Part shown: positions 1,378 through 47,822 of the stretch, piece by piece
Layout of the letters: each line of letters opens with the position of its first letter
Numbering within the stretch: position 1 is the first letter of the stretch
Assembly (NCBI RefSeq): GCF_004010195.1
Contig: NC_057752.1
Span: 4,649,201-4,706,136, forward strand
From: Chiloscyllium plagiosum
Lineage: Eukaryota
DNA: 56,936 bases
Reading direction: 5' to 3'
Program-made: the position numbers and the translations under genes
Notes under the pieces: generated by a model
The model's database searches: none
What the model saw: the letters and a program-made list of their open reading frames with translations, nothing else
What the model was told of the DNA's origin: nothing

Positions 1378-2256
1378 TAAGAACAGGGTACGATGACGCT
1401 CAACTGATTAATCACCAGTTCTCATGTGCCACAGCAAAAAGCCACAACAACCGCCTCAGAAGACAAGACACAGAACACGATCAATACAGTACCCTTCACC
1501 TGGAGCAGAAACACTACACCATGTCCTTCGCAGCCTTCAGTATGTCAAGAATGACAACGAACATCTCGCCATGATCATCTCTACGCCTCCACCTTTCGCC
1601 TTCAAACAACCATCAAACCTTAAACAGACCATCGTTTCCAGCAAACTACCCAGCCTTCAGGACAGCATCTTCCACAATTCTGCCACGGCAATCTTTGCAA
1701 GACATGCAGATCATGGACATTGACACTCATCACCTATGGGAACACCACCCATACGTACAGTGCAGATGTTCATGTGACTCGGCCAATGCTGTCACTACAG
1801 GCCAGGATGCCCTGAGGCACGGTTTATTGACAAGACCATGCAGGCGTTACTACAATGGATAAATGGGCGCCGCACAACAATCGCCTGTCAAGAATGCTCC
1901 CTCCCAGTCGGGGAACACCTCAGCAGTCAAGGGTATTCGGCCTCCTATCTTCGGGTAAGCACCCTCGAAGGCAGCCTTAGAGACACACAACAATGCAGAA
2001 TTGCCGAGCAAAACTGATAGCCAAGTTCCATACCCATGAAGATGGCCTCAACTGTGATCTTGGGTCCATGTCGCACTAGGGGTAACCAGACTGTACTCTC
2101 TATTGTAAAATCTTTCTTACTGTCCTATTTTGACGATACCACATTGATAAATTATCGTGATCTCTCTACCTTAATTAGTTTGTAGTTTTGGATTACCTGT
2201 TACTTTGGTGCAACCTTCGCCACGTGACTCTTATACCTATCATCTTATTCCAGTCA

Positions 2257-2462
2257 AATAAAAACCGAAAGGACAGCGGATGCTGTAAATCAGGAGCAGG
2301 GGCAAGGGTTCCTGGCCGGGGGGGGGTGGGGAAGATGCTCCGTGGGTCTGGCAGCGTCTGTGAAGAAAACCTCCGAGTTAACGTTCCGGATCCGGTGACC
2401 CTTCCAGCCGTTTTCTTTCCAGATGCTGGGGTTTTTCTAGCAGCGTCTGTGTGTGTTCCGCG
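2257..2462. mobile_element. Short fold-back PLE pLTR derivative (second family) with 12-bp TSD
   Basis: TTATTCCAGTCA occurs at 2245-2256 and 2463-2474. Inverted internal segments (cagcgtctgtgaagaaaa / ttttctttccagatgctg) and a decayed minus-strand HHR at ~2377-2408. Confidence 0.7.
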
Positions 2463-2597
2463 TTATTCCAGTCAGTTGGTTTGTCTCTAGCACCACCTTA
2501 GTTTTAATAGTTTGTAATGATCTCTTTCCCTCATTTAATCAGTCATCCCTTCGCTTGTTATTCAGCTGTTGACACCCTTGGTCACTTGCAGAGACTT

Positions 2598-2846
2598 TAG
2601 ATTCGATTCCCTCCAGCCCAACCAGTCCACAGCAACCCTCCCCCTGCCTAATGCACCTAACACTACGGGCGATTTAGCATGGCCAATTCGCTCTGACCTA
2701 CACATCTCTGGACTGTGGGAGGAAACTCACACAGACACAGAGAGAACGTGCAAACTCCACACAGACAGTCGCCCGAGGCTGGAATCGAACCTGGGACCCT
2801 GGTGCTGTGAGGCAGCAGTGCTAACCACCAAGCCACCCATGCCACC
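2598..2846 (-). mobile_element. HE1-type tRNA-derived V-SINE
   Basis: Reverse complement of GGTTAGCACTGCTGCCTCACAGC..CAGGTTCGATTCC..GACTGTCTGTGTGGAGTTTGCAC with a (tagat)n tail. Confidence 0.85.
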
Positions 2847-3879
2847 CACAGATGTTTTGTTTCGATTCTCCACTCGCACCAGTTGTATGATCCTTTGGCC
2901 TCTCTGTCCTTGATCTCTCTGCCTATAAACTCCATGTCTGTGTGCTTCCCTCTCACTGCACCTGGCAGAGGGGCAGCGCTCCGAAAGCTTGTGATTTCAA
3001 AATAAACCTGTTGGACTGTAACCTGTGTGACTTCTGACTTTGCCCACCTCCCCAGTCCGACACCGGCACCTCCCCATCGTGCGTTAACATCACAAACGTC
3101 TGGCTGTTCTTTCAGGCCGCGGAAACAATTGCCATTCAGTTTGCTGCTTATCTCCCCAACCTGTGAAGAGCCAACAGAGCAGGCCACGTTGGAGTCCACC
3201 CCTCCGCTGCCTTCTGTCCAAAGCGACAGCCAACGTTCCCCAGGTCAGCTCCATCCTGTCTGATTCCTGCAGTTCCCTGCAGGGAACCGGGAAAGCTAAG
3301 GGCTCCACACTGTTCAGGGAGAAATCTGACCCCATTAAAGCTTCCAATTCTCCTTCTGGGAGGTCCTGGAAACTCTTCAAAGTGAACGCCAAGGTTGTAG
3401 GCCTGTGTTGCACCAATGCTGTGTATCGTTATGGTGTGCCTGTTGAATGGACCGTTTGGCCTGCACCTCTCCCCTCCGCCCCCCGCCCCTCCCCATTGAA
3501 AGCACTCAGGGCTGGATGTGGGACAAATGAACACTTATCCCATCAGCAGACTCCCTGGCCTGATTGACATGTTAGTTTTCACATCTTGGACGGACATCAG
3601 GAACAAATTTACCCTGGTCATGTTAACCTTAAACTGCTAAATGAATCACAAGGAGAGGGACAGTGTCCGTCTTGAGGCCCTTTCCTCTTTCACAGTCCTC
3701 TTCAGTTTTCCTTTCTCGTCAACTGGCCTCCGATCAACGTTTTTCACTCCTTTTCCCATTTTTGGAAGCTGATTTTCTTTTTTTTTTTAACTTTGGAAGA
3801 GAAGGTTTGGAACCAACTTTAAAAGTGACTTTTCCAGTTGATGGGAATCCTACATTCAGAAGGTTGCTAGCCTTGGCTG

Positions 3880-4225
3880 AGGTAGCTGGGTCAGCCATTG
3901 AACAGGTCATCTGGCTTCAGAGTCCCAGCACAGTGCTGCACTGTCGGAGCTGCTGCTTCTGTTAAGACATTAGACTGAGTCTCTGGCTCCCCTCACAGTC
4001 GGACAGAAGATTGAGGCTGTCTCATTCCAGCATCCTGTTTATCCCTCTGTTTCAAGGAAACAGATTATCTGCTTTTGGCCACATTCCTGTTTGTGGGATC
4101 TTGCTGTGCCCAGCTTTTCCGGCTGCGTTCCCCTCATCGCCACGGCGACTGCTTTTCGAGAGCGGCCGGCGCTCACTCCAGCGCATCTTGAATGGCGCGA
4201 TGCGAGGCCGCACTGTTCCTTTCCC
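3880..4225 (+). mobile_element. Deu-domain SINE (SacSINE1/AmnSINE1-like), GC-shifted copy
   Basis: cagtgctgcactgtcggag...gtttgtgggatcttgctgtg... aligns with copies at 35050-35600 and 42600-42990. Confidence 0.6.
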
Positions 4226-4502
4226 TCTCTCCATGAGGCTGGCATAGTTACTGCAGCGCCCATGGCAACCACCACTCAGAGGCAGTTCCTCAGCGACCCC
4301 CGTCCCCCCCCCAGATACAAGACGCTGGGCACACAGTGAAATTTTGATTTTTCTTTCCAAGTCGACAAGTTATGCCACAAGCTGCATCTCGAACAAAGGT
4401 GGTAAGAACGCCTCCGAAAATGCAAGTTACTCTGGATGGTGCCTTCCTTGGCGATCACTCTGCTCACAGTATCAGAAGCATTTCAATATCATTTAGGTAT
4501 CG

Positions 4503-4820
4503 GGGAGGGGATGGTGTAGTGGGTGACATCATTGGGGTGGTAACTCAGAGGCCCAGGCTAATGTGCTGAGGAAGTGGATTCGCATTCAGTGAAAATCTGA
4601 ATTTAAATGCTCGCTTAACTGTCAATTGTCATTAAAAAAAACCCATCTGGTTCACTAATGTTCTTCAGGGAAGGAAATCTGCCATCCTCAGCTGGTCTGG
4701 CCGACATGTGACTCCAGACCCACAGCAACGTGGTTGACTCTCAACTGCCCTCTGGGTAATTAGCGATGGGTAATAAATGCTGACCTAGGACATCCCATGA
4801 ACAAATTTTGGAAAAAAAAT
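4503..4820 (+). mobile_element. tRNA-derived SINE family B (tail ggcaataaatgctggcc...catcccatgaa)
   Basis: The core aaacccatctggttcactaatg..agggaaggaaatctgcc..ggtctggcc.acatgtgactccagacccacagcaa recurs several times in the window. Confidence 0.8.
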
Positions 4821-4859
4821 TCATCCTTCCCTCCCTCTTATACAATAATTACATCAAGA

Positions 4860-5181
4860 GGACGCATGGTGGCTCAGTGGTTAGCACTGCTGCCTCACAG
4901 CGCCAGGGACCCAGGTTCGATTCCAGCCTTGGGCGATTATCAGTGTGGAGTTTGCATATTCTCTCCGTGTCTGCGTGGGTTTCTTCCTACAATCCAAAGA
5001 TGTGCAGGTTAGGGTGGATTGGCCACGCTAAGCTGCCCCATAGTGTTCAGGGGCATGTAGGTTAGGGTGGATTGTCCATGCTGAAATTGCCCCATAGTGT
5101 TCAGGGATGTGTACGTTAGGTGCATTAGTCAGTGGAAATGTAGAGTAATAGAGTAGGGGAATGGATCTGGGTGGGTTACTT
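4860..5181 (+). mobile_element. HE1-type V-SINE with an internal ~54-bp tandem duplication, ends at gap
   Basis: A box (GGTGGCTCAGTGG), B box (GGTTCGATTCC) and V-domain present. aggttagggtggattg...ccccatagtgttcaggg occurs twice. Confidence 0.85.
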
Positions 5182-5681
5182 NNNNNNNNNNNNNNNNNNN
5201 NNNNNNNNNNNNNNNNNNNNNNNNNNNNNNNNNNNNNNNNNNNNNNNNNNNNNNNNNNNNNNNNNNNNNNNNNNNNNNNNNNNNNNNNNNNNNNNNNNNN
5301 NNNNNNNNNNNNNNNNNNNNNNNNNNNNNNNNNNNNNNNNNNNNNNNNNNNNNNNNNNNNNNNNNNNNNNNNNNNNNNNNNNNNNNNNNNNNNNNNNNNN
5401 NNNNNNNNNNNNNNNNNNNNNNNNNNNNNNNNNNNNNNNNNNNNNNNNNNNNNNNNNNNNNNNNNNNNNNNNNNNNNNNNNNNNNNNNNNNNNNNNNNNN
5501 NNNNNNNNNNNNNNNNNNNNNNNNNNNNNNNNNNNNNNNNNNNNNNNNNNNNNNNNNNNNNNNNNNNNNNNNNNNNNNNNNNNNNNNNNNNNNNNNNNNN
5601 NNNNNNNNNNNNNNNNNNNNNNNNNNNNNNNNNNNNNNNNNNNNNNNNNNNNNNNNNNNNNNNNNNNNNNNNNNNNNNNNN
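5182..5681. other. Assembly gap of 500 N (other gaps: 9776-10065, 39943-40537, 48311-48810, 53981-54240)
   Basis: Runs of N. Confidence 1.
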
Positions 5682-5999
5682 GGGGATCTGATTGGCAGGT
5701 ATGAAATGATAGGTGCAATACTTTATTAGAAGTATTCATTCCCTTTGGCCATTGTAGCTGCTACCTGCCAAGGGGAAGAGTCCATTGCAAGTAGAGGATG
5801 ACACACTGACCAACATTAGACAGACTATATTGGATTTATTAATGTAAAAGTTAATTCAAATCACTGTGCAATAACTTATTCCTGCCACTCACATTTATAA
5901 AGCCTAAAGGCACTGGAGAAGGCGAAAAACATATTTATAAAGATGATACAAGATCTGACAAACTAGTATTCTCAAAAAAAGAACACATTGAGACTCCTT

Positions 6000-6640
6000 T
6001 CAGAGAAAAGAAAGCTGAGGGGTGACCCAATGGAAATAGTTAAAATCATGAATTTGATAGGGTAGACGTGGGGAGCCACGAGGTTAAGCTGCAGCTCGAA
6101 AGAGCCTTGGATAGACCACACTTGGAATATTGTGTTCAGTTCTGGTCACCTCATTATAGGAAAGATGTGGAAGCCTTAGAGGGGGTGCAGAGGAGATGTA
6201 CCAGGATGCTGCCTGGACTGGAGGGCACATCTTGTGAAGAAAGGTTGAGGGAGCTCGGGCTCTTCTCATTGGAGTGAAGAAGGATGAGAGGTGACTTGGT
6301 AGAGGTGTACAAGATGTTGAGAGGCATAAATAGTGGATAGCCAGAGACATTTTCCCAGGGCGGAAATGTCTATCAAGAGGGGGCATAATTTTAAGGTGAT
6401 TGGAGGAAGGTTTAGGTGAGATGTCAGAGGTAGGTTCTTTACATAGAGTGTGGTGGGTGTGTGGAATGCACTGCCAGTGGTGGTAGTAGAGTCAGATACA
6501 TTAGGGAGGTTAAGGTGACTCTTGGATAGGCACATGGATGATAGTACAAAGAAGGGTATGTAGGTTCGTCTGATTTTAGAGTAGGATAAAAGGTCAGTAC
6601 AACATTGAGGGCTGAAGGGCCTGTACTGTTCTATGGTCTG
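6000..6640 (+). mobile_element. CR1 LINE 3' fragment
   Basis: [36 protein letters not shown]...LGLFSLE followed by a CR1 3' UTR (gggctgaagggcctgtactgttctat). Confidence 0.9.
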
Positions 6641-8039
6641 TGTAGGACTGACAGAATCCTGGGAACAGGCTCCAGTGACCCACATATAAACCAGAGAATG
6701 GCAAAATAAAAATTTAAGAGGGGAGGCAGGCTGAAAAAATAGTAAAGAAAGTGGAAATAGCAAGACCTGGTAACCCTGCCCAAGAATGTCAAGACAACTT
6801 AGAAACTGGATTTTTGTGCATTTTCTCCCCGGGAGCACTTCTTTAATTAGCAAAAAAGAAATAGGTAACCAGTACTTAGCAAAATGCTTGAAAGCACAGA
6901 TAAGCTGCCTTTGAACTTTACATTGAAAATCATGATGATTTAAGGACTGAGGCATGTTTGTTTGATCAGTGAGCTGCCAGGCATAGCCGCCCCTGCAGGA
7001 TGGTTGGCAAAAGACATTTCAACATGAAAGGCCTCTCCCTCAGCGTAATGTGGTCCTTGAAGGAACAAAGAAAATTTATGCTGCTGGAATGTGGACACCG
7101 TAATGCCTGATCTATTGTTCAGTGTAAAATGGAACACAATACAAGGTCAGGTGGACTCATAACAAACATGAAGCTGTCAGTTAAAATCTTAGAATAACAG
7201 ATGGATGTGTGGCCAAATATTGCCATGATCAAGACCATTAATTCAACATTTGGACATTGTTAAGTTTAATATTACCTCAATTATTGTCACATAATTTTCC
7301 AATTTGATGTTACATACTCTGGTATGTATTCATTGTAGTATTAATCTCAAAACAACTCCATCATGGCAGTGGCAGCACTAACTGGACTACGTGATCACAA
7401 GGCCAGGCTTATTGCGGGTTCTGTGGGCGTGACCTCCCATTCCACCAAACTCTCCATCACATCGCCGTGAGGATGCATTTGTTCACCGAACAACAGGGTG
7501 TCCCCAAGCTGCTCCTGCTTAAATCCCGAGCAATTACAGGGCTGGGCCCAAGTTACCCTCTGCATAACAGCCCAAGAAGATGGAAATTGAAGGGGAAGAA
7601 ACAGAATAGATTTCAAGGGCATGGAAAAAAACATCTTCTCAGCGCGGATTTAATTCTGGGTCATGTTTTGTGGTCGGATGGTATTCCTCAGACCAAATAT
7701 CTACCGGCCACAATCACAGTGACATTGTGCCTGGTGGAGCTCTCCAGCTTAGACGCTGCAAGTGATAGGTGGTTAGGCGGGTACTACGGGTACCTCTCCA
7801 ACATCCACTTGCATCATGCTGCCTACCTGTCACTGCTGAAGCTTGGCGTTGTGGAGGACAAGGAGGAGAAAGTTGCTGAGCCCTCTTACCCTCAAGAGTC
7901 TAGGCAACGTCCCCCTTTGTCTTTTGTGATGGCCAATTCTTGACTGTTTAGTGGGGGGGTGGGGGTAAGAGAGAGTGGTGGTGGGGGCATCCAAGCTGCT
8001 TTGAGACATTATGAGGCTAGTATGTTTTATGTCACCCAA

Positions 8040-8620: not shown

Positions 8621-8624
8621 CTTT

Positions 8625-8970
8625 TATTATTTATTCATTCACAGGACATGAGCATCACTGGCTGGGCCAGCGTTTATTGCCCGTCCCTAATTGCCCAGAA
8701 TTCAGTTAAGAGTCAACCACATTGATGTGGGTCTAGAGTCCTGTGTCAGTCAGACCAAGTAAGGATGGCAGTTTCCTTTCCTCAAGGACATGAGTGAACC
8801 AGATGGGTTTTTCCCTGACAATTTACAATGGTCCCATTATCATCATTAGACTCTTAATTCCAGATTTTTATTGAATTTCACAATCTGCCGTAGCGGGATT
8901 TGAACCTGAGTCCCCAGAATATTACTTGGGTCTCTGGATTAACAGTCCAGTGATTGACCATTGCTTCCCC
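8625..8970 (-). mobile_element. SINE family B
   Basis: Reverse complement of the 4503-4820 / 30963-31310 family, including a B box (gggatttgaacc). Confidence 0.85.
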
Positions 8971-13237: not shown

Positions 13238-13800
13238 TCAAGGGTACTAAGTAGCTGTCTTCATGCCAGAGTGACTAGAAATGTTTGAGTTCAGTGCTGA
13301 GTGTTGAGAGATATTTTAGAATTCAATTCTGCCCTCAGTTCTCAATCAAACATTTTCAAGCAGAATTGGGTATGCGAATTTGCTTTGTTTTGTTCACTCC
13401 CTAACCTTTATAAAGTGAAGGGAGGACCCATTCCTGATTCTCTAGCTAAAATCAATTTGTCCTCGAAACTGCCCCTACATTCCTTGATTGTATAACAATT
13501 AGCATTTTATTCCTCCTTATCTGTTCATTTGTGAGGGTGAATAAATAATAGATCACAATCCAAATTCAGAACTTGCTTCATTAGTAATATTTTGTGGCGA
13601 TAATTTTAATATAAAGTGCTCATGCTGCTGTGACATTTGCACAAAATGAGAGGGTAACCCATGCAGCATAATGAACGGAGTTCTGTACTGCTCAAAAATG
13701 AGGAGCATAACAAAGAAAAGTTTGATTTTCCTTCAAATGTTACAATTTATGTGTGTTATTTTCTTCATGGGCTTCTAGTGGCTGGACCTTTAAAAAGAAT

Positions 13801-14152
13801 AGAATCGAGAATGTGGTGGTGGAAAAGCACACAGTCAAGCAGCATCCGAGGAACAGGAGAATTGCCGTTTCAGGCAAAAGCCCTTCATCAGGACTGAGGC
13901 AGGGAGCCGGGTAAGGTGAGGGGAGGGGAAATGAGGAAACTGGTGAAGTCCATATTGATACCCTGGGGTTGGAGGGTCCCGAGGCGAAGATGAGGCGTTC
14001 TTCCTCCAGGCGTCAGGTGGTTAGGTAGTGACAATGGAGGAGGCCCAGGACCTGCATGTCCTTGGCGGAGACACTCTGCCTGACCTGCTGTGCTTTTCCA
14101 GCATCACACTCTCGCCTCCAACCTCCAGCATCCGCAGTCCTCACTTTCGCCT
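13801..14152. mobile_element. Fold-back PLE derivative with an internal GIY-YIG C-terminal fragment
   Basis: Left gtggtggtggaaaagcaca..aagcag is inverted as ctgcctgacctgctgtgcttttccagcatcacac on the right. The right end carries the tail ctccagcatccgcagtcctcactttc. Imperfect TSD tttaaaaa.aat. Confidence 0.8.
13864..13891 (-). ncRNA. Minimal hammerhead ribozyme motif, probably inactive (cleavage triplet GGC)
   Basis: Minus strand CTGATGA-A-GGGC-TTTT-GCCT-GAAA-CG-GC. Confidence 0.6.
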
Positions 14153-14961
14153 TTTAAAAAATAATGTTTTTGGGCTTTCTGAATGCAATAGATACTATGC
14201 AAATATTATCTGCAGGTTGAGGGGAAGCCATTGTTAATGAAACCACCTTAATCAGATCAAATGTTTTCACCTTATATCGAGAATTATGAATTTAACAGTA
14301 CAGGATGAGATCATTCTCACTCTCCATGTACTGTCCCCACAAAAGAGCTCTTGACCTCATCCCTTTGCCCACACCCTTCTAATTATTTCTCTTTCAAGTA
14401 TTCACTCCTAAACGTGATGGAATTTCTCAACACCAACAGTGCTTCTGGTAAAACATGTTGACTCCATGTAAACAAACTCCCCCAAAGCTTTTCCCTTTGT
14501 TCTTTCGGTGATAATTTTAAATTTCTGGTTGTTAGCTACAGGCTCATGGCCCAGTGGCAATTGGCTGCCATGTTTGCTTAGATGTCAAAAATATGTCCTT
14601 GGACATTGGGAAGTCCCAAGAATGTAAAGAAGTGTCAGTATAAGTGCAAATTCTCTCTTCCCTAAAAGTACATTTAGGTCAGATGTCTACACTGAGGAAT
14701 TATAGTTTCATGAATTCAACAGCTCACTGGAATATGAATGGAATGTGTCCTCAAATACTCAACAAGCAGAAAGACTATCTAGATTGTATTTACCCACTGA
14801 ACAAAGAAATTTATGCAGATACCTGGGGGACTACAATTGGATACTGTTGACAAACAAATTTCTCCAAATAAACATTTCAAATGCTGTGAAACATTTTACT
14901 GTGTTAACACATGTTAACGTGCTTAACAAAGCACTTTTGTTTTCATTCAGCTCACAAGACC

Positions 14962-15168: not shown

Positions 15169-15171
15169 CTT

Positions 15172-15380: not shown

Positions 15381-15399
15381 GGATCTACAGACAGTCAGT

Positions 15400-16690: not shown

Positions 16691-16691
16691 G

Positions 16692-16934: not shown

Positions 16935-18152
16935 CAGTAACAAAGAGGATTGATGAGGGCAGAGCAATAGACTTGATCTATTTGGACTTCAGTGAGCCGT
17001 TCGACAAGGTTCCCATGGGACACTGATTAGCAAGGTTAGGTCTCATGACATACAGGGATAATTAGCCATTTGGATACAGAACTGGCTCAAAGGTAGAAGA
17101 CAGAGGGTGGTGGTGAGAGGTTGTTTTTCAGATTGGAGGCCTGTGGCCAGTGGAGTGCCACAAGGATTGGTGCTGGGTCCACTACTCTTCGTCATTTATA
17201 TAAACGATTTGGGTGTGAGCTTAAGAGGTATAGTTAGTAAGTTTGCAGATGACACCAAAACTGGAGGTGTGGTAGACAGCGAAGAAGGTTACCTCAGATT
17301 ATAACGGGATCTTGATCAGATGGGCCAATGGGCTAAGGGGTGGCAGATGGAGGTTAATTTAGATAAATGCGTGGCGCTGCATTCTGGGAAAGCAAATCTT
17401 AGCAGCACTTATACACTTAATAGTAAGGTCCTAGGGAATGTTGCTGAACAAGAGACCTTGGAGTGCAGATTCATAGCTCCTTGAAAGTAGAGTCACAGGT
17501 AGATAAGATAGTGAAGAAGGCGTTTGGTATGCTTTCCTTTATTGGTCAGAGTATTGAGTATAGGAGTTGGGAGATCATGTTGCAGCTGTACAGGACATTG
17601 GTTAGGACACTTCTAGAATATTGCGTGCAATTCTGGTCTCCTTCCTATCGGAAAGACGTTATGAAACTTGAAAGGATTCAGAAAAGATTTACAAGGATGT
17701 TGCCAGGGTTGGAGGAATTGAGCTAGAGGGAGAGGTTGAATAGACTAGGGCTGTTTTCCCTGGAGGCTGAGGGGTGACCTTATAGAGGTTTACAAAATTA
17801 TGAGGAGAATGGATTGGATAAATAGGCAAAGTCTTTTCCCTGGGGTCGGGGAGTCCAGAACTAGAGGGCATAGGTTTAGGGTGAGAGGGGAAAGATATAA
17901 AAGAGACCTAAGGGGCAACTTTTTCACACAGAGGGTGGTACGTGTATGGAATGAGCTACCAGAGGAAGTGGTGGAGGCTGGTACAATTGCAACATTTAAG
18001 AGGCATTTGGATGGATATATGAATAGGAAGGGTTTGAAGGGATATGGGATGGGTGCTGGCAGGTGGGACTAGATTGGGTTGGGATATCTGGTCGGCGTGG
18101 ACGGGTTGGACCGAACTGTCTGTTTCCGTGCTGTACATCTCTCTGACTCTAT
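16935..18152 (+). mobile_element. HER1-like CR1 LINE, 3' 1.2 kb with stop codons
   Basis: [58 protein letters not shown]; tail ctctgactctat. Confidence 0.95.
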
Positions 18153-23699: not shown

Positions 23700-24190
23700 A
23701 TGAGTGTATTTTCTCTTATTTAAGAGTCATGTGATCGGTTAAACGTGAAATACTGCAGATGCTGGAAATTCGAAATGAAAACAGGACGGGCTGGAGGAAC
23801 TCAGCAGGTCTGGCAGCATACGTGGAGAGCGAATGTTTTGAGTCCATTATGACTCTTGTTCAGAACTTAATGCTCAGGTTCCGTGATGCATTCCAGGCTG
23901 ATAACACAGTGTCGTTACTGAAGGAGTACAGCATTGTGAGGGGGCATCCTTTTAAAGAAGCACGCCCCGCCCTCTTGCTTTTGTCTTTTGGTATAGATCT
24001 TCTGCCACTCTTCATCTTCACTCTTCTGGCAATCGTTTCATCCCATGTCCAACCCCCAATCCCACACGGAGCAGCTAGCTGCCTGTTTGTTATCCTTCAT
24101 GGGATCTTACTGTACACAATTGGGTGGCTGCATTTACCAACAGAATGCCAAACGCTGCCCTTGAAAAGTAATCTGCACCACATCAGAGAG
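23700..24190 (+). mobile_element. Deu-domain SINE interrupted by a PLE pLTR fragment (23741-23867)
   Basis: SINE: caggctga..cagtg..tactgaaggagtacagcattgt..gggatcttactgtacacaattggg. Insert: tactgcagatgctggaaat..actcagcaggtctggcagcat..gagtcc..gactcttgttcagaact, with a decayed HHR on the minus strand. Confidence 0.6.
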
Positions 24191-24892
24191 TATAGGATGA
24201 TTCCCTCCCAGCAGTTTATGTTCTGGGGTTTGAGACTATGCCATATTCTGTGATACAGTCATGCCCAGTCCAGAGAACAGACTTTAAACCTCAACCCTTT
24301 TCCCAGCCCTTGTTGCTGTGCTATCTCCCTGTACACATACACAAAAATGTCATCATTGACTGCATTGCAATCTCTTTTGCTTTCCATTTCTGAATGCCAG
24401 TCACCTGGCGAGGGAACCTGGGCATGGCGTGCCGTTTTTTTCCCCCATCCGTTTGCTTGTTTACACAGAGCTGTCCCATATGTTGCTACAGCAAATAAAC
24501 CAATCAATCTGCCAAATGGTTTCTGCTACATTTAAAGTGGGTAGTGCCTTTATAGGAATAATATCTTGTGACGGTTAGGAGCGGAGGAAATTGAGTGACC
24601 CGTTGAATTGGAGCCCTCTTTCACTTCAGGAACATTCATTTGAATGAGGCTAAGATTTGAGAGCCTGACTATTCCAGTGCACTCCTGGTCACCTAAACCT
24701 GAGCTTATCTAAAACCCTGCTTCCCATGTCTTAACTCACAGCAAGTCCCATTCTCCTATCATCCCTGCGCTCTCACTGATCTATATCAACTCCCAGGAGA
24801 AAGTGAGGTCTGCAGATGCTGGAGATCAGAGCTGAAAATGTGTTGCTGGAAAAGCGCAGCAGGTCAAGCAGCATCCAGGGAACAGGAGAATC

Positions 24893-24920
24893 GACGTTTC
24901 GGGCATAAGCCCTTCTTCAG
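24893..24920 (-). ncRNA. Minimal type-I hammerhead ribozyme, core intact (mirror copy)
   Basis: Exact reverse complement of 24955-24982. Confidence 0.8.
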
Positions 24921-24954
24921 GAATGAGGAAAGTTTCTACAAACTTTCCTCATTC

Positions 24955-24982
24955 CTGAAGAAGGGCTTATGCCCGAAACGTC
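24955..24982 (+). ncRNA. Minimal type-I hammerhead ribozyme, core intact
   Basis: CTGAAGA-A-GGGC-TTAT-GCCC-GAAA-CG-TC: CUGANGA, stem II, GAAA, palindromic ACGU mini stem III, GUC cleavage triplet. Confidence 0.8.
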
Positions 24983-25194
24983 GATTCTCCTGTTCCCTGG
25001 ATGCTGCCTGACCTGCTGCGCTTTTCCAGCAACACATTTTCAGCTCTATATCAACTCCCAGTCAAGCAACAGGTTCATTTTCAAATTCTCATCCTTTGTT
25101 TACAAATCCCTCCTTGGCCACACCCTCTCCCTCTCTCCCCCGGCCCCAGTACCCTCCAAGTTATCAGCACTCCTTTAATTCTGACCTCTTAGAG

Positions 25195-26140
25195 AGACAC
25201 AGAAGAGGCCCTTTGGCCGATCAAGTTTGTGCCAACCTATCCCAAACTGGCCCATAGTCTTGAATCTTATAACGTTTCACATGCTCATCCAAGTCATGTT
25301 TAAGGGTTGCGAGGTTTCCCACCTCAACTACCCTCCCAGGCAGTGCATTCCACAATTCCACCACCCTCTGGATGCAAAGTGTTTTCCTCAAATCCACTCT
25401 AAATTTCATGCCCTTTCCCTAAAACGATGGCCCCCTCACTATTGATCCTTCCACTAAGGGAAATCAGGTCCCCTCTTAACCTTGTTTGCTCTAAAGAAAA
25501 CAACCCAAGCTTATCCAGCCTCTCTTCATATCTGAAATGCTCCATATCAGGTAACATCCTGGTGAAGCTCCTCTCGCCCGTGCTCCAGTTCAATCGCATC
25601 CTTCTTATTGTGTAGTGACCAGAAGTGCACACAGTACTTCAGATGAGGCCTAACCAAAACTTTGCAAAAGTGAGGACTGCCAATGCTGGAGATCAGAGTC
25701 TAGATTAGAGTGGTGTTGGAAAAGAACAGCAGGTCAAGCAGCATCTGAGGAGAAGGAAAAATCGATGTTTCGTGTAAAAGCCCTTCATTCCTGATGCTGC
25801 TTGACCTGCTGTGCTTTTCCAGCACCACTCTAACCAAAACTTTGGATAACTGTAAAGTAACATCCCTGCTTTTATAATCTATGCCATGACTGATAATAGC
25901 AATTCTCCCCTATGTCCTCTTAATTACTCTGTTAACCTGTCCTGCCATCTTCGGGGATCTGTGGGCAAGGACCCCAAGATCCCTCTGTTCATTGGAGCTT
26001 CCTAATGTCCTACCATTCACTGGGCACTGCCTTGTCTTGTTACTTCTTCCAAAGTGCACCACCTTGTGCTTTTATGAACTGAATTCTACCTGCCACTGAT
26101 CTGCCAATCTGACCAACCCAATTATATCCTGCTATAACCT
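25195..26140 (-). mobile_element. CR1 LINE 3' fragment with a nested PLE palindrome
   Basis: Minus ORFs: RSFTRMLPDMEHFRYEERLDKLGLFSLEQTRLRGDLI; QRVVELWNALPGRVVE. Confidence 0.85.
25665..25829. mobile_element. Fold-back PLE mini-element (HHR core disrupted) with a 15-bp TSD
   Basis: CTAACCAAAACTTTG occurs at 25650-25664 and 25830-25844. Arms ttagagtggtgttggaaaagaacagcaggtcaagcagcatc / gatgctgcttgacctgctgtgcttttccagcaccactctaa. Confidence 0.9.
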
Positions 26141-26474
26141 AAGATGTTCTTTTGCATTCCCCATTATAATTTCTCAGGCCTTGAAACCTACCGCTTTGAC
26201 CAGCCATTTGGTCATCTCCTTCTGTTGCATGTGATCCAACTTGTTTTACAATGCTCCTCTGAAATGGCTCAGGCTGTTATGCTACTGGTGCCATATAAAC
26301 ATAAGCCTGCTGTTGTTGTAAGTGCATGTTGGGATAGAAGTTTCCTCCACCTGTTGGAGAAATGTTTACACAACATCAATGAAGTGATTCCAGTCCCACA
26401 GCTCAGCTCTGACTGGCAAGCTTACAGCAACCTTCAATCATGACTGCTACAGCTTGTGGACTTATACCAGAAAA

Positions 26475-35049: not shown

Positions 35050-35600
35050 TGGTGTTCCAGCTCAGTGAGTAAGCAGTCTTATCTCTTGAGTCATAATGTT
35101 TTAGGTCTAAGTCATGAAAACTCAGCTGACACTCCCAGTGTGTATCATCGAGGGAGTGTTGCACTGTTGGAGATGCTGTTTTTTCAGTTGAGACATTAAA
35201 CTGAGGCCCATCTGCCCCCTCAGGTGGATGTAAATATTCTCACGGCACTGTTTTGAAAATGAGCATGGGAATTCTGAAGAAGAGTTATGCCAGACTTGAA
35301 ATGTTCACTCTGTTTCTCTCTCCACAGATGCTGCCAGACCTGCTGAGTTTCTCCATCGTTCTGTGTTTGTTTCAGATTACCAGCATCCGCAGAATTCTGC
35401 CTTGATTCGAGTTCTCTCGATGAGCTGGTCAATATTTATCCCTCAGTTAATATCAGGAAAACAATTGATCTGGTCATTATCACAGTGGTATTTGTGGAAG
35501 CTTGCTGTGTGCCTGTTGGCTATTGTGTTTCTGACACTACAGCACTAATACACTTTCAAATGTATTTAATTAATTGTAAAGTGCTTTGGGATGCCTAGTG
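35050..35600 (+). mobile_element. Deu-domain SINE interrupted by a PLE pLTR fragment (35271-35405); other copies 36770-37100, 42600-42990, 44310-44425, 50460-50800(-)
   Basis: gctgacactcccagtg..gagggagtgttgcactgttggagatgctg..gagacattaaactgaggccc..caggtggatgtaaa..caatatttatccctca. Confidence 0.75.
35274..35305 (+). ncRNA. Hammerhead motif, partly decayed (second PLE family)
   Basis: CTGAAGA-A-GAGTT-ATGCCA-GACTT-GAAA-TG-TT. Sibling remnants at 39061-39095(+) and ~23832-23863(-). Confidence 0.55.
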
Positions 35601-39768: not shown

Positions 39769-41274
39769 GATGGCAGAGTGGGAACTGCAGAGGCTGGAGA
39801 TTAGAGTGGTAGTGGAAAAGCACAGCATCTGAGGAGCAGGAAAATCGACGTTTCGGGCAAAAGCCCTTCATCAGGAATGAGGCAGGGAGCCTCAGGAGTG
39901 GAGAGATAAATGGGAGGGGAGTGGGGCTGGGGGGAAGGTAGCNNNNNNNNNNNNNNNNNNNNNNNNNNNNNNNNNNNNNNNNNNNNNNNNNNNNNNNNNN
40001 NNNNNNNNNNNNNNNNNNNNNNNNNNNNNNNNNNNNNNNNNNNNNNNNNNNNNNNNNNNNNNNNNNNNNNNNNNNNNNNNNNNNNNNNNNNNNNNNNNNN
40101 NNNNNNNNNNNNNNNNNNNNNNNNNNNNNNNNNNNNNNNNNNNNNNNNNNNNNNNNNNNNNNNNNNNNNNNNNNNNNNNNNNNNNNNNNNNNNNNNNNNN
40201 NNNNNNNNNNNNNNNNNNNNNNNNNNNNNNNNNNNNNNNNNNNNNNNNNNNNNNNNNNNNNNNNNNNNNNNNNNNNNNNNNNNNNNNNNNNNNNNNNNNN
40301 NNNNNNNNNNNNNNNNNNNNNNNNNNNNNNNNNNNNNNNNNNNNNNNNNNNNNNNNNNNNNNNNNNNNNNNNNNNNNNNNNNNNNNNNNNNNNNNNNNNN
40401 NNNNNNNNNNNNNNNNNNNNNNNNNNNNNNNNNNNNNNNNNNNNNNNNNNNNNNNNNNNNNNNNNNNNNNNNNNNNNNNNNNNNNNNNNNNNNNNNNNNN
40501 NNNNNNNNNNNNNNNNNNNNNNNNNNNNNNNNNNNNNAGCCTCTCCCTATAGCTCAAACCCTCAAACCCTGGCAACATCCTTGTAAATCTTTTCTGAACC
40601 CTTTCAAATTTCACAACATCTTTCCGATAGGAAGGAGACCAGAATTGCACGCAATATTCCAACAGTGGCCTAACCAATGTCCTGTACAGCCACAACATGA
40701 CCTCCCAACTCCTGTACTCAATACTCTGACCAATAAAGGAAAGCATACCAAACACCTTCTTCACTATCCTATCCACCTGCGACTCCACTTTCAAGGAGCT
40801 ATGAACCTGCACTCTAAGGTCTCTTTGTTCAGCAACACTCCCTAGGACCTTACCATTAAGTGTATAGGTCCCGCTAAGATTTGCTTTTCCAAAATGCAGC
40901 ACCTCGCATTTATCTGAATTAAACTCCATCTGCCACTTCTCAGCCCACTGAGGCGTGGACTTGACCAGGTAGATCACGGAGGGAACGGTCTTTGCAGAAA
41001 GCGGATAGGGGTGGGGAGGACAATATATTCATGGTGGTGGGGTCCATTTGGAGGTGGCAGAAATATCAGCAAATGATGCGATTTATGCGGAGGTTGGTGG
41101 GGTGGAAGGTGAGGACGGGGGGGGGGGGGGGGGGGGTTCTGTCCTTGTTGCGGTTGAAGGGGTGGGGTTCGAGGACTGAGGTGCTGAAAGTGGATGAGAT
41201 GCGCTGGAGGGATCCTCAACCATGTAGGAGAGGAAATTATGGTCTTTAAAGAAGGAGGCCATCTGGTGTATTCA
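39769..41274 (-). mobile_element. Neptune-type PLE insertion (pLTR 39775-39942, coding fragment 40950-41270) containing a gap and a CR1 fragment (40538-40948, minus)
   Basis: The pLTR belongs to the same family as 24797-25044. Candidate TSD CAATGTTCTGAC (39757-39768) / CAATGGTCTGAC (41275-41286). Confidence 0.6.
39847..39874 (-). ncRNA. Minimal type-I hammerhead ribozyme, core intact
   Basis: Minus strand CTGATGA-A-GGGC-TTTT-GCCC-GAAA-CG-TC. Confidence 0.8.
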
Positions 41275-41385
41275 CAATGGTCTGACTGTACCTGACCAAC
41301 TTGAGCTTCCAAAACTTGCAACATCGTGTCCAATGTTCAATCTGATTGTGCAATTGGGCAACATTTGCTGGGTATCCTGACTGTG

Positions 41386-41676
41386 TGGCACGGTGGCTCG
41401 TGCCACTGTTAGTGCACAGTGCCAGGGTCCCAGGTTCAATTCCCACCTCAGGCGACTGACTGTGTGGAGTTTGCACATTCTCCCCATGTCCGCGTGGGTT
41501 TCCTCCCACAGTCTAAAAATGTGCAGGTTAGGTGAATTGGCCATGCTAAATTGCCCGTAGTGTTAGGTGAAGTGGTAAATGTAGGGGAATGGGTCTGGGT
41601 GGGTTACACTTCGGCAGGTCGGTGTGGACTTGTTGGGCCGAAGGGCCTGTTTCCACACTGTAAGTAATCTAATCTA
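41386..41676 (+). mobile_element. HE1-type SINE
   Basis: ggcacggtggctc..caggttcaattccc..V-domain..gtaagtaatctaatcta. Confidence 0.9.
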
Positions 41677-43002
41677 AACTGACACCCAATTTAAGATTGT
41701 CAGTCAGGACTGTGGCACACTTGTGTGTACTGGATTTTGCGTATATTAATTGACAGGATTCTGCATTTTGCAGATACAAAAACAACATGTACAAGCATTA
41801 CACCTGTTTCAACTCAACAAAACCAGTGACAGCCATTTGCCAGTTTATTTCTCAGGGCAATGCCCTGATTAGTCAGTCAACCAACTTGATAAAATTTAAA
41901 CAAAGCCAGGCAGTTAATTGTAAATCATCATTAATTGGTGCTTTGTCCATGGCAATGCCTCTACTAATCAGAGTACAGCTGTCAGCCAATCAACTCTCTC
42001 CTTTCATGCAGTATAAATATTGTTTTTTTCCTCTTAAACTAGTTTTTCGTGTGAATTGTCCTGATAAGTGCATAACAAAACACTTGTACCTTTTTTCAGC
42101 AATGCCTTTCAGGTTCTGTGCTAAAAACCTGCCTGTTGAGGGTTAGCAATGTTGTGATTGAAATGTTCACTTCAATAGGGTTGTGGTTGAGGTTCAGGGA
42201 AGCCTGTTTTTTTCTCTGATGGTAACGTTCTGGGCACATGCTCAATTAATGCATCACTGAACTGCTTGATGATGCCCTAATGGAGGTGTTTCTCCGCTGA
42301 GGTACTGCGTTATGCAAACTGGATATCACCACTCAGTGGAACGAGGACCTGACCCATGCAACTCAAAACAATGGAATGTAAGGTTTGGGTGAGGTTGATG
42401 TGAATGGTTGAACAGTTTCCTGGCCAGCAACACCTTCAGCTATTCCCCCTAATTTCCTTCCTGGCTGCACAGGTCTCTGAGGCCTGTGTGCGTGACAACT
42501 TCCAGAACTGGGAGTCAGTGCTGCCATTGGTGGGCTGACACCAATTTCTATATGGAGCAGCTGTGTATGCTCACAGCCATACAGCTTAGACGGAGACTTG
42601 GTGTCTGTTGTAGCTCATTTAGTTGCACTCTGGCCTCTGAGTCCAGAGATTTGAGCATCTAATTCCAGGCTAACACTCTTGGTGCTGCGTTATCTGAGAT
42701 GCTGAGATGTAAAAACAGGTCCTTCTCATCTGCCTTCGGAATCAAAAGACCCTTCAATATTTTTTCAAAGGAAAGGGGGGTTCTCTCTGGTTCCCTGGGC
42801 CAAACCTAATCCTTCATACAACATCTGAAGAACAGATGATCTCATTGTTGTTTGTAGGAGCATGCTGTGTGCAAATTGGCTGCTGCCTTTGCTACATTAC
42901 AGTGCAGTTACGCTTCAATAATAATTCACTGCAAAGGGCTTTCGCACATCCTGAGTTTGTGAAAGGTGCTGTAACAAAGCAAGCATTTTCACTTTTATGA
43001 TG

Positions 43003-43500
43003 TGTCATAGAGTCATAGAGCTGTACAGCACAGAAACAGACCCTTCAGTCCAACTCGTCCATGCTGACCAGATATCCTAAATTAATCTAGTTCCATTTGC
43101 CAGCACTTGGCCCACATCCCTCTAAGCCCTTCCTATTCATATACCCATCCAGATGCCTTTTAAATGTTGCAATTGTACCAGCCTCCACCACTTCCTCTGG
43201 TAGCTCATTCCATACACATACCACCCTCTGCGTGAAAAGGTTGCCCCTTAGGTCCCTTTTATATCTATCCCCTCTCACCTTAAACCTATGCCCTCTAGTT
43301 CTGGATTCCCCCACCCTAGGAAAAAGACCTGTCAATTTATCCTATCCATGTCCCTCATGATTTTATAAACCTCCTCATGATTTTATAAACCTCATTAAGG
43401 TCACTCCTCAGCCTCCGACGCTCCAGGGAAAACAGCCCCAGCCTGTTCAGCCTCTAACCCTGGCAACATCCTTGTCAATCTTTCCTGAACCCTTTCAAGT
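43003..43500 (-). mobile_element. HER1-like CR1 3' end
   Basis: GESRTRGHRFKVRGDRYKRDLRGNLFTQRVVCVWNELPEEVV; (catagagt)n tail. Confidence 0.9.
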
Positions 43501-44809
43501 TCCTGTTCCATGAGGCAGTGAATTCAGTTAGAAACAGCAGGATAAAAATACTGCATATTTCTATTTCCTGTCATTAATCATCTAAAGAGTCACTGCCTTC
43601 ACCAGACTTTGGCCTTGTATAACAGATACAAAAGCAGGAGGGGATGTTCAACATTCAGCTCTGCTCAACTGTCACTAGTCTGGTGTTTCTGAGCCATTTC
43701 AACTGCGTGCCTCCAGTTACTTTCATAAAACTGCCCATAGGAAGCAACAAGTTGAAGCAGATATTGGCTTTGCGTCTGGACAGACACCTTTGTGTCATCC
43801 CCATTATGAAGACCATCAATCTTTGGCTTAGGAGGAGCAAGAAATGACAGTGCATGACTGGAATCCACAGTCTGGTCCCTCTCGGGTCATTCTTGTTGAT
43901 TGTCTTTTATTCCACCCCTTGATCAGGCAGCAAATTGCTGGTCGCCTTTATTATTTGGGAGAGAAATGGCAGATACGCAATAAGTGGCAGAAACTCTCCA
44001 AGTTCATTGCTGTGGTCATAAGAGTACAAAGGAATGTTTCATGTGCTAAGCCAAGAAGCATTTTTAGAATGGCAGATTGTTTACAGAGTACAACAATAAA
44101 TTAAGATCCTGTGTGGTACCGACTGGCAATTGTGACATAGTTCATGGAGCTTTTTATTGTGAATTATAATCACCAGTAACACTCATCAGTGAAGGCCTCT
44201 GGATTTAACTTGTCTCAAGAACTGGTCAGTGTTAAGTTTTAGAAATTTATGAGCTTAGGAATTATTTTTCGCATTGTCATTTAACCATGTTGCGCTCAAA
44301 ACGTTTGTTATGGTCCCTACATCATAACAGTGACCGCACTTCAGAAGTATTTCATTGGCTGTAAAGTGCACTGGGGCACCCCGAGGTCATGAGAGGCACT
44401 ATAGGAATGCACATTCTTTCTTTTCATGCTGCACACACTGCAAGCCGCAAGGCTGCACACTTTTGGAAAAAAATATCTCTTGATTGTAGAAAGCCAAAGG
44501 GAATGCATCGAGCTACAGGTCAGCAGTAGCAGAGTTCGGTTGCAGCTTTTTCTCAAATTTCCAGCCCAAACTCACAAACATACTGCAGTAATATTAGCAC
44601 TTAGCATGCCCTGACCAAATCACAACCAATCGAAGAGCAGTTAAATGGCCAGTTCATTTGCATTTTTTGGTACCGCTGGTTGAGGGAGGTATAATGTCTA
44701 AGTCGCAAACAAAATCAACTCTTCGCGGAACATGGTACCAAATGAATTCGTTACCCTCAGGTGTCAGATGGTTAAGTGTGGAGGAATATGTTGAATGGGT
44801 GGGATGCAG

Positions 44810-46130
44810 AAGGGTGGGAGAGGAACGACTTGGATAAGTAAAGTGATTGTACTATCGCCAAGTTTGTAGATGTCACAAAAATAGGGAGGAAGGCAAGTGG
44901 TAAGAGGACACAGTCATCTACAGAGGGATGTAGACAGGTTAAGTGAGTGAGCATAAAACTTGATACATGGGCAAATGTGAGCTTATGCACTTTGGCAAGA
45001 AGAATAAAGGAGCTGAGTATTATTTAAATGGAAAAAGACTGCAGCAAAGCTACAAAGCAAGGGTTTTGGGAGTCCCCATTCATGAATCACAGAAAATTAG
45101 CATCCAAGTTCAGTGTTCCTTATAGAATCATCACAGAATCCCTACAGTATGGAAGCAGGCCATTTGACCCACTGAGTCCACACCAACCCCCCGAAGAACA
45201 ACCCACCCAGACCCATGCCCTATCCTATCCCTGTAACCCTGCATTTCCCATGGCTCATCCACCTAGCCTACATATCCCCGGACACTGTAGATACTATGGG
45301 GCAACTTAGCACGGCCAATTCACTTAACCACTTAATCCACCCAGTGTTGGCCGATATTTCAAAGGGAATGGAGTGTAAAGGTAGGGCAGTTTCGCTAAAA
45401 CTGTACAAGGCACTAATCAGACCACAGCTGGAATACTGTGAACAGGTTTGGACTCCTTGTTGAATTAAAGATATACTGTCATTAGAAGCAGTCCAGAGAA
45501 GGTGCACTCAGCTGATCCTGGATATGGAGGGACTGTCTTATGAGGTGAGATTGAACAGCTTAGGCCTGTACTCATTGGAATTGAGAATAATGAAAGGCAA
45601 ACATATTGTAACAAACAGGATTCTGAGGCATTCTGGATCAGTGGTGCTGGAAGAGCACAGCTATTCAGGCAGCATCTGACGAGCAGCAAAATCAACGTTT
45701 CGGGCAAAAGCCCTTCATCCGGAAATTGACAGGGTCGATGTGGAAGGTTGTTTTCCTTAAAGGAGAGCTTAGGATCAAAGGGCATAATTCTGATTAAAGA
45801 ATTGTCCATTTAAGACAGCGATGAGGAGGATAAGGTTGACAAAAATAATTATTCTCGTTGGCTGATAGTACCAGTGCTATGAGACAGAGATTTAAGATTT
45901 TAAGCAAGAGTTGTAGGGGAATTTAAGGAAGAATTTATTTATGCAGTGAATGGAATGAACTGGAGACAATTGTATAAGGGTGCTGGAAACAGATTCAATC
46001 AATCATTTCAAAGTAAATTTGTTGGGCATTTGAGGTAAATAAACGTGCGGACTTTGGAGATGGAACAGAGGGGTGGGACTGACTGTATTGTCAAATACAG
46101 GCTGAATGGCCTCCTTTGGTACCGTTGTGA
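44810..46130 (+). mobile_element. Decayed CR1 fragments interrupted by an HE1 fragment and a PLE pLTR fragment (45632-45724)
   Basis: IAKFVDVTKIGRK; LKLYKALIRPQLEYCEQVWTP. The pLTR HHR on the minus strand at 45694-45721 has its core mutated to CGGATGA. Confidence 0.75.
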
Positions 46131-46175
46131 CTCGATGTTCCCTGTTTCATTACTGCTGATGTAATATTGTGAATA

Positions 46176-47581
46176 GTGTGGCGCTGGAAAAGCACAGGCT
46201 GGGGTTGAGGTAGCTGGAAAGGCGATAGTTAGATGCAGGTGCGTGGGAAGGAAGATTGTCAGTTCAAGAGGGCGGTGCCGAATTAGAGGATTGGATCTGG
46301 GATGGGATGGGTGGGAAGGAAGATGAGGAAACTGGTGAAGTTAAAGTAAATGCTGTGCAGTCGGAGGGTCCCAAGGCGGAAGATGAGGCGTTCTTCCTCC
46401 AGGTGTGAGGTGGCTTGGATTTAGCGGTGGAGTAGGCCCAGGACCTGCAGGCCCTTGGCAGAGTGGGAGGGGGAGTTGAAGTGGTCAGCCACAGGGCGGT
46501 GGGGTTATTGGGTCCGTGTGTCCCAGAGACGTTCCCCGAAATGTTCCGCGAGTTGGCGTCCTGTCTCCCCAATGTAGAGGAGACCACATCGAGAGCGGAA
46601 GAGGTCCAGGACCTGCAGGCCCTTGGCAGAGTGGGAGGGGGAGTTGAAGTGGACCTGACGAGGGAGTTGTGGAGGGAATTGACTCTGAGGAATGCTGATA
46701 GGAGTGGGGAAGGAAATATATCTCTGGTGGTCAGGGTCTGATGGTAGGTGGGGGAAATGGTCATACAGTGCATTATCCTTTGCCATTTCCACCACCTACA
46801 ATCAGATCCCCACCACCAGAGATATGTTTCCCTCCCCACCCCATCGGCAGTCCACAGAGACCATTCCCTCCGCGACTCCCTCATCAGATCCACACCCCCA
46901 ACCAACCCACCCTCCATTCCCGGAACCTTCCCTTGCTGCCGTGGGAGATGTGAAACCTGCACCCACACCTCCCCCCCTCACCTCTGTCCAAGGCCCCAAA
47001 GGATCCTTCCACATTTGGCAGTGATTTTCCTGCACATCCAAACACTTCATCTACTGTGTCCGTTGCTCTCGATGTGGTCTCCTCTACATTGGGGAGACAG
47101 GACGCCAACTCGCGGAACGTTTCAGGGAATGTCTCTGGGACACACGGACCCAACAACCCCACCGCCCTGTGGCCGACCACTTCAACTCCCCCTCCCACTC
47201 TGCCAAGGGCCTGCAGGTCCTGGACCTCTTCCACCGCTAAATCCAAGCCACCCCACACCTGGAGGAAGGACGCCTCATCTTCCACCTTGGGACTCTCCAA
47301 CCACAAGAAATCAACGTTGATTTCACCAGTTTCCTCATTTCCCATTCCCCCTCATCACAGATTCAACTCTCCGACTCGTCACTGCCCTCTTGAACTGTCC
47401 TACCTGTCCATCTTCCTTCCCACCTATCTGCTCCACCCTCCTTTCCGACCTGTCACCATCACAAGGGCTTCTGCCCGAAATGTCGATTCTCCTGCTCCTC
47501 GGATGCTGCCTGACCTGATGTGCTTTTCCAGCACCACTCTCTCGACGCTGATCTCCAGCATCTGCAGTCCTCACTTTCTCC
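46176..47581. mobile_element. 1.4-kb fold-back Neptune-type PLE with a GIY-YIG remnant in both arms and a 14-bp TSD
   Basis: Right arm: PGTFPCCRGRCETC..FSCTSKHFIYCVRCSRCGLLYIGETGRQLAERFRE..PVADHFNSPSHS. The left arm is its inverse. TAATATTGTGAATA (46162-46175) / TAATATTATGAATA (47582-47595). Confidence 0.9.
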
Positions 47582-47822
47582 TAATATTATGAATACACAA
47601 CTAATTAACCAAAGCAAGCTTTTACATCACACATTTATACGAGACTAGAGAATCAGAAAGCTATGCTGTAATTAATATATTATCTAATTACTTGGAGTGC
47701 TATTACCTTAATGTGAATGTGATAACATCATTGTCAATTTCTTCAGCTATAAAATGCACATTAGCACAGCTGTCTGTATGGTACTGCATAATAAGCTGAA
47801 ACAACAACAGTCCTTCTCACAA

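Follow-up and report, generated by a model that had tools for sequence, protein, structure and literature searches.

Fold-back insertions of Penelope-like elements in a shark genomic window: new examples of a described architecture and their bearing on how integration may be completed

How does a Penelope-like element (PLE) come to lie in host DNA as two inverted copies of its own end, only one of which carries the complete 3' tail? The question is raised by a stretch of the Chiloscyllium plagiosum genome of 56,936 nucleotides (NCBI RefSeq assembly GCF_004010195.1, contig NC_057752.1, positions 4,649,201 to 4,706,136 of the forward strand), referred to here as the window and numbered from its first letter. 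A first-pass annotation had proposed that the window holds five independent PLE insertions of 165 bp to 1.4 kb, drawn from two families of pseudo-long terminal repeats (pLTRs), and both the positions and the sizes were confirmed: E1 at 2257-2462 (206 bp), E2 at 13801-14152 (352 bp), E3 at 24797-25044 (248 bp), E4 at 25665-25829 (165 bp) and E5 at 46176-47581 (1406 bp). These five fold-back insertions, which had been picked for that very trait, constitute the sample of the present analysis. They follow an already described PLE insertion pattern, of which they are new examples in shark Neptune-type copies.

In all five elements the 3' ends of the arms face outward, which makes the units head-to-head, with one arm tailed and the other 33-45 nt shorter. 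The annotated shortfall of 30-45 nt is clear in E2-E5, while in E1 it hinges on the alignment register; likewise, the shared asymmetric architecture holds for the ends but not for the interiors, as one or both arms carry large deletions in four of the five elements and E5 is rearranged. The flanking target-site duplications (TSDs, all on the forward strand) were compared with 20,000 random end pairs drawn from the window. Exact copies enclose E1 (12 bp, 2245-2256 and 2463-2474; P = 0.00065), E3 (17 bp, 24780-24796 and 25045-25061; P = 0.00015) and E4 (15 bp, 25650-25664 and 25830-25844; P = 0.0003), and those of E5 match at 13 of 14 positions (46162-46175 and 47582-47595; P = 0.00065). The duplication assigned to E2 proved weak: within the imperfect left copy at 13789-13800 only eight exact bases in an A/T run are repeated (13789-13796 and 14153-14160), lengthening with one indel and one mismatch, and P is 0.003 against random window pairs and 0.014 against 20,000 AT-rich pairs.

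The arms differ in preservation. The long arm of E1 (2257-2404, minus strand) is tailed, G-rich and diverged and was aligned with 35265-35396 and 23742-23875, and its short arm (2410-2462, plus) ends about 36 nt short of the tail end with three unexplained junction letters and no microhomology; this inverted arm was undetected by blastn at E 1e-3, the arm-to-arm alignment spanning just 19 nt. In E2, the short-ended arm (13801-14070, minus) comprises a pLTR with a hammerhead core, followed by the 3' untranslated region (UTR) and the end of the endonuclease with an internal deletion, and the tailed long arm (14076-14152, plus) measures 77 nt, lacks the hammerhead and is 87% identical to 47506-47582. 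The long arm of E3 (24797-24937, minus) bears the tail and a minimal hammerhead motif, and its short arm (24938-25044, plus) bears the motif as well. E4, which is inserted in an old CR1-type long interspersed nuclear element (LINE), consists of a tailed long arm (25665-25788, minus) and a short arm of 37 nt (25793-25829, plus). In E5, the short-ended arm (46176-46760, minus) joins a 22-nt pLTR end, a deletion spanning the hammerhead, parts of the UTR and endonuclease, a 56-nt block and part of a linker, and the long arm (46761-47581, plus) runs through a Cys-rich linker, a broken GIY-YIG domain, the 3' UTR and a partial pLTR to the tail.

Whether the direct repeats arose on insertion can be judged at sites without the element. 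Contigs from four sequencing runs of three species (organisms A, B and C) were mapped onto 24300-26300, and a single contig in organism B (run X6, record 17) and another in organism C (run X8, record 24) joins 24779 directly to 25045. The 265 nt skipped equal E3 plus one TSD copy, and the flanks differ from the window at 16-17 of 478 letters. Run X5 of organism B yielded two separate contigs at E3, the left one ending 2 nt into the 17-mer, and was not counted, so that the empty site is bridged in two of three runs of relatives. The relatives hold 9 additional letters somewhere within 25045-25150, which excludes a full second 17-mer and still allows a few junction letters. The run of organism A, which is possibly the source of the window itself, covers both filled junctions of E3 (records 2 and 6). 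For E1, the surrounding host DNA (2150-2597) has an inverted paralogue of 77-79% identity at 399-634 in which the target is single (about 526-536); for E4, the CR1-type copies at 17446-17734 and 40541-40830 contain the site once, CTAA included, and no bridging contig of relatives was present among the matches listed. Because the target is single at these empty sites, the TSDs of E1, E3 and E4 arose on insertion. TSD formation is thus demonstrated for three of the five elements, in agreement with the annotation's claim of independent insertions, and the pre-insertion allele that it had called for in related sharks was found for E3 in organisms B and C.

The two-family assignment was upheld: E2-E5 form one pLTR group with pairwise identities of 78-87%, and E1 represents a second family, kin to pieces at 23742, 35265 and 39058, which has no coding sequence within the window and hence receives no clade label. 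In the right arm of E5, 47028-47240 matches PF01541 (E 5.8e-4, 20.5 bits, below the curated cut-off of 22.6), and the same endonuclease piece is 72-75% identical to two longer bamboo-shark proteins with reverse transcriptase (RT) and GIY-YIG regions (two matches among 16 candidates); compared with solved structures it gave no match at E up to 1. One of these homologues, P0002, has a weak RVT_1 match (E 0.0077) upstream of GIY-YIG, whereas the RT region has been lost by truncation from all five elements. The interval 46775-46993 of E5 encodes a Cys-rich linker closing in CX2-5CxxC, with 58% identity over 66 aa to its counterpart in P0002, and Craig et al. (2021, PMC8557442, accessible part) give a linker of this kind, placed after RT and before the endonuclease, as a hallmark of two clades, Neptune and Nematis. 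The sequence places the E2-E5 family among endonuclease-bearing PLEs, probably of Neptune type by its linker, a feature common to Nematis.

A minimal hammerhead motif is known from PLE pLTRs (PMC4209133, in the part accessible). Scored here with a pattern of core, 4-bp stem II and GAAA strand, and known here from sequence alone, the full motif is present in three of ten arms, namely the left arm of E2 and both arms of E3, and by this pattern it is lost or damaged in the other seven. E3 alone retains the hammerhead region in its two arms, E5 has just the GAAA strand, in its right arm, and the pattern is absent from E1. An Rfam scan returned no hammerhead among nine matches at E up to 1; the nine, all below gathering scores and mostly microRNA hairpin models lying on the palindromes, were dismissed as chance folds. 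Two other element classes were ruled out. Miniature inverted-repeat or other non-autonomous DNA transposons have flush terminal inverted repeats, a fixed TSD length and a uniform size, and the present units have offset ends, TSDs of 12-17 bp and five differing sizes and centres. Non-LTR retrozymes are head-to-tail tandem hammerhead units, and the present units are single and head-to-head. The long arm of E1 is G-rich over 2257-2345 (34% G over the element, with a G run), and related copies have A or T on that strand, which could reflect A-to-G hypermutation, biased conversion or poor sequence.

The outer ends bear most directly on where copying of the element began. Among the 24 loose-end rows listed, beside which 4383 more exist, the largest row in each of the four runs falls at 24795 (1007, 636, 972 and 893 contigs), and the next position after it is 24796 or 24794; in three species, then, the position of the tail end is sharply defined, to about 1 nt. 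Letters past it agree overall at only 0.32-0.35, yet six of the seven listed rows at 24795-24796 close, in register, with the same four letters; either some copies of the element may extend further than the tail end, or targets may be selected. The short ends lie about 36 (E1), 33 (E2), 36-33 (E3), 45-41 (E4) and 43-42 nt (E5) from the tail end, so the annotation's expectation of a non-uniform distribution was borne out, all five being clustered 33-45 nt inward. The offset for E1 holds on alignment to the copy at 35265-35396, whereas MAFFT placed E1 in another register. The short ends of E1, E2 and E3 fall at about the same homologous spot across the two families, as does one contig end in the run data, and a 15-nt zone shared by four arms of 125-820 nt, with E2 left out, has a probability of about 2e-5 under uniform ends, for cases selected by trait. 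The loose-end rows for short ends (25828, 25833, 25036 and 25040) are confounded by subfamily divergence and were excluded as a distribution. Folding of the tail region gave z scores of 0.02 for 143 nt and of 0.25, -0.82, 1.37, -0.19 and -2.11 for the five tails; as no consistent RNA structure emerges, no stem-loop at the start sites is claimed. In run X8, a high-depth contig links the short end at 25033 to the tail end at 24796 with about 20 host-like letters between them, the arrangement that a circular form, or tandem units separated by one target copy, would produce.

Overlap between element and target sequence was the basis on which the annotation had attributed the internal start to microhomology. 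The TCT that opens the right TSD copy of E3 and the CTAA that opens that of E4 are indeed shared with the element, but they are the best two of five cases: short-end overlaps are 0, 0, 3, 4 and 1 nt in E1 to E5, and tail-end overlaps are 1, 3 (or 1), 2, 1 and 1 nt, the final 2 nt of the left TSD copy of E3 also fitting the element end, with the family end at 24795. Under a geometric null with base-match p = 0.25-0.27 among its settings, the short-end total of 8 nt compares with 3.3-4.3 expected (P 0.04-0.10 two-sided, which was judged the proper form; 0.003-0.01 one-sided), and the tail ends give the same two-sided range of 0.04-0.10, or 0.15-0.28 for the cautious tail set. A small excess of microhomology is possible, but the data do not establish it and it is not confined to the short arm; with two of five short ends at zero and the tail ends equal, priming by microhomology found no confirmation. 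The same junction bases qualify the proposed stagger of 12-17 nt. Stripping the ambiguous ones leaves 10-12 nt, and because they may belong to either element or target, the stagger of the cut is bracketed at 10-17 nt.

The centres of the inverted repeats carry information of another kind. E3 is a palindrome with no spacer (24828-25047), in which 108 of 110 mirrored positions pair and one mismatch lies just two bases off the axis. At the centre of E2 (14064-14080, read against 47185-47215 and 47495-47520), there is a 7-bp stem with a 3-nt loop, after which the sequence crosses into the pLTR via a shared 5-mer. The centre of E4 (25780-25796, compared with 39845-39895) has its turning point at a shared 4-mer, its 5-nt loop reading in short-arm orientation, and a second shared 4-mer then marks where the hammerhead was deleted. 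At the turn of E5, about 20 nt come from the long arm. The inner arm ends are accordingly offset by 0-2 nt in E3, about 2 in E2, 9 in E4 and about 20 in E5, although their distance from the tail end ranges from about 140 to more than 800 nt. Arms truncated independently would not stop 2-20 nt apart so deep inside the element, as those of E2 and E5 do hundreds of bases in, and a fold-back is favoured for that reason. The loop comes from the short arm in E4 and from the long arm in E5, which means that folding is possible for either strand. Among the 15 joints listed, which are visible solely within the E3 span and beside which 2752 more exist, 12 are other genomic copies that turn at the upstream edge of the hammerhead with offsets of 1-18 nt. 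A variant common to both E3 arms (mirror sites 24878 and 24997) reaches about 40% of family depth in organism A and 1-7% in the relatives, and marks a lineage-specific burst of a pLTR subfamily that includes E3.

E5 is an old copy that was reworked after insertion, by arm-to-arm conversion or template switch. Identity between its arms declines along their length, from 50/50 to 31/50, the block at 46597-46652 (56 nt) is a perfect but displaced copy of 47177-47232, and a patch of 92-100% identity (46400-46652 against 47065-47260) lies within arms that are otherwise 70-85% alike. An origin of the arms from two different active subfamilies is unsupported (third-codon differences 12 of 41; 10 synonymous, 31 not).

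The architecture itself has precedents. In the "typical Penelope structure" as described earlier (PMC3846280), the pLTR is inverted, one arm ends in a 31-bp tail, palindromes occur at the junction and the TSDs measure 8-10 bp, and an inverted truncated copy with a tail of 30-40 bp on one end is reported from all PLE clades (PMC8557442, accessible part). The shark units resemble these endonuclease-positive units in their head-to-head pLTRs, one-arm tail, enclosing TSD, junction palindrome and microhomology-type deletions (PMC3846280, PMC8557442). They differ in being as small as 165 bp, in belonging to shark Neptune-type families, and in apparent TSDs of 12-17 bp (10-12 bp without ambiguous bases) against 8, 9 and 10 bp in the rotifer examples. 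The closest biochemical counterpart is the purified PLE protein of Anolis carolinensis (PAc, Poseidon clade), for which Frangieh et al. (2024, PMC11167929, accessible text) show cleavage of the two target strands and extension from each. It is a predicted dimer and uses two internal start sites that lie in the start of the open reading frame (ORF), are spaced by the length of the tail and are not homologous to the cut DNA. Tail-spaced start sites, two-strand cutting and extension, AT-rich targets and a pLTR hammerhead are the features common to PAc and, on the reading given below, the shark PLEs. In the text available, that study does not give TSD length, the pairing of long and short starts per insertion or the closure of the centre, its supplement does not mention tail, homology, duplication or inversion, and later PLE integration steps are stated not to be validated. 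In the parts accessible, PMC12602865, PMC9977147, PMC8969392, PMC6515669 and bioRxiv 10.64898/2026.07.22.740005 contain only general descriptions of the architecture. Literature joining twin priming and Penelope, judged by its listing, offered nothing on the PLE mechanism, and no paper on shark copies or start-site pairing was found in the literature searched, from which most subscription journals, the older PLE papers among them, are missing.

The best explanation, to which we give about an even chance of being right, is that both target strands prime at two preset sites and that one of the resulting cDNAs folds back onto its partner. On this reading the elements are dead, 5'-truncated insertions of endonuclease-bearing PLEs, whose GIY-YIG endonuclease would cut both target strands 10-17 nt apart, probably leaving 3' overhangs that give rise to the observed TSD. 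Each target 3' end may prime antisense cDNA on the pLTR region, with the outer start at the tail end, fixed to about 1 nt, and the inner start in a looser zone 33-45 nt further in. By analogy with the Anolis system in vitro, the start sites would be set by the element RNA or protein, with 0-4 nt of pairing as a helper at most. One cDNA would subsequently fold back, and the returning strand would pair with the partner cDNA, closing the unit head-to-head with a near-symmetric centre. Later deletions and arm-to-arm conversion, observed in E5 and presumed for E1, E2 and E4, would erode older palindromes. Two-strand extension and the two start sites are carried over from the Anolis work, and their pairing in one event is an inference of ours. 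The annotation's claim that both target strands prime thus holds in vitro for the Anolis element (PMC11167929) and is suggested for the shark. A stricter version, in which integration is obligately asymmetric, one strand always taking the outer and the other the inner start, pairing tuning the inner one and a snap-back closing the unit, is regarded as doubtful.

Several observations weigh against this explanation. The PAc protein belongs to the Poseidon clade, unlike the Neptune-type shark families (PMC11167929), and assays of Neptune proteins were not encountered in the literature examined. The centre of E1 is asymmetric by about 45 nt, the symmetry of the listed joints could come from a shared stopping point at the edge of the hammerhead and not from coupling, and loops can change orientation once an element is in place. 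No inverted partner lies within 1.5 kb of any of seven other PLE pieces in the window (23742, 35265, 39058, 39774, 40950, 45638 and 49715), their best partner scores of 19-35, the 35 being E3 itself, standing beside a null median of 22 and a 95th percentile of 32; nor does any of the seven, one of which adjoins an assembly gap, have a direct repeat longer than 8 bp at its ends. The fold-back pattern is thus common, not universal, among the PLE pieces of the window. Moreover, the evidence from the shark is DNA sequence, not RNA or a reaction intermediate.

The rival explanations differ in where priming occurs and in how the second arm originates. A single priming event, in which a cDNA begun at the tail end turns back to serve as its own template, comes to a halt 33-45 nt short of its start at a bound protein or RNA and is attached through microhomology to the other end of the target, much as LINE 5' junctions are made, would account for the zero-spacer palindrome and near-identical arms of E3, for a short end looser than the tail end and for the overlaps of 3-4 nt at E3 and E4; the loop of E4, however, reads as short-arm cDNA, which could not supply the tail, E1 and E2 have no overlap, and both strands are extended in vitro (PMC11167929), so that this route appears unlikely, if still the strongest of the rivals. 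Somewhat less probable is the model of the first-pass annotation, in which two independent cDNAs, one primed at the RNA end and the other internally through microhomology with the target, are joined without fold-back in the manner of twin priming. The TCT and CTAA that are host-derived yet match the element speak for it, as do the summed overlap (P 0.04-0.06 at p = 0.25-0.27) and the chance that short copies both stop at the hammerhead edge, to judge by the listed joints. Yet two of the five short ends lack overlap and the tail ends have as much, the symmetric centres deep in E2 and E5 are left unexplained, and the in vitro start sites are not homologous to the target and are both internal, which does not fit a primer at the RNA end (PMC11167929), a position that DNA alone cannot give. 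In L1 twin priming, both sides of the break prime reverse transcription and produce an inversion inside a TSD, and two regions of one RNA are copied without duplication (Ostertag and Kazazian 2001, as described in PMC2246262). The shark arms instead repeat the same region, an overlap impossible from one RNA by twin priming, and meet near-symmetrically, and the units have no poly(A) end and have outer ends at preset positions, so the likeness to twin priming was not sustained.

Self-priming before integration was put forward for exactly such head-to-head palindromic junctions (Arkhipova et al. 2013, PMC3846280): an antisense or read-through RNA would act as its own primer, and the resulting hairpin cDNA would be resolved into the target by the endonuclease, with the tail left on one side. 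The tail has been attributed to endonuclease resolution (PMC8557442), and the centre of E3 fits such an origin; later in vitro work nevertheless links the tail to two RT starts on sense RNA with target priming (PMC11167929), and we hold this origin to be improbable, slightly more so than the annotation's model. Least credible by far is the notion that the inversions followed insertion, through replication slippage or gene conversion, or are assembly errors. Later arm-to-arm copying did occur in E5, and the centre of E3 is unspanned among the contigs listed, but the TSDs flank both arms together, the run of organism A, although possibly the window's source, spans both E3 junctions, and many other copies with fold-back joints occur in four runs of three species.

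Other features of the window were recorded alongside. The piece at 40950-41200 comes from the PLE linker region and is 72-75% alike to E5, and a hammerhead-like motif with a longer stem II at 49728-49758 belongs to a third family and has no inverted arm or TSD. Beside an assembly gap, 48821-49051 (minus strand) contains what we take, from a motif, to be an RT-like fragment, with no Pfam match. A long TG-rich tandem repeat array with an assembly gap (51800-55900) produces spurious long ORFs. Scans for relatives by DNA pattern gave 0 matches in viral_contigs and 0 in metagenome_contigs, and of 588 pattern matches to proteins in metagenome_contigs, 0 were confirmed as relatives.

The structure of E1-E5 is textbook for PLEs and in itself unsurprising; its worth lies in providing test material for how PLEs complete integration. 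The genome holds many hundreds of short copies per family, with empty sites that can be verified in close relatives, and a genome-wide record of start pairing, TSD length, overlap and centre offset could discriminate among three routes, namely two-strand priming closed by fold-back, one priming event followed by end joining, and self-priming. If the obligately asymmetric version were true, these abundant small palindromes would amount to a genome-scale fossil record of start-site pairing, stagger and second-strand closure.

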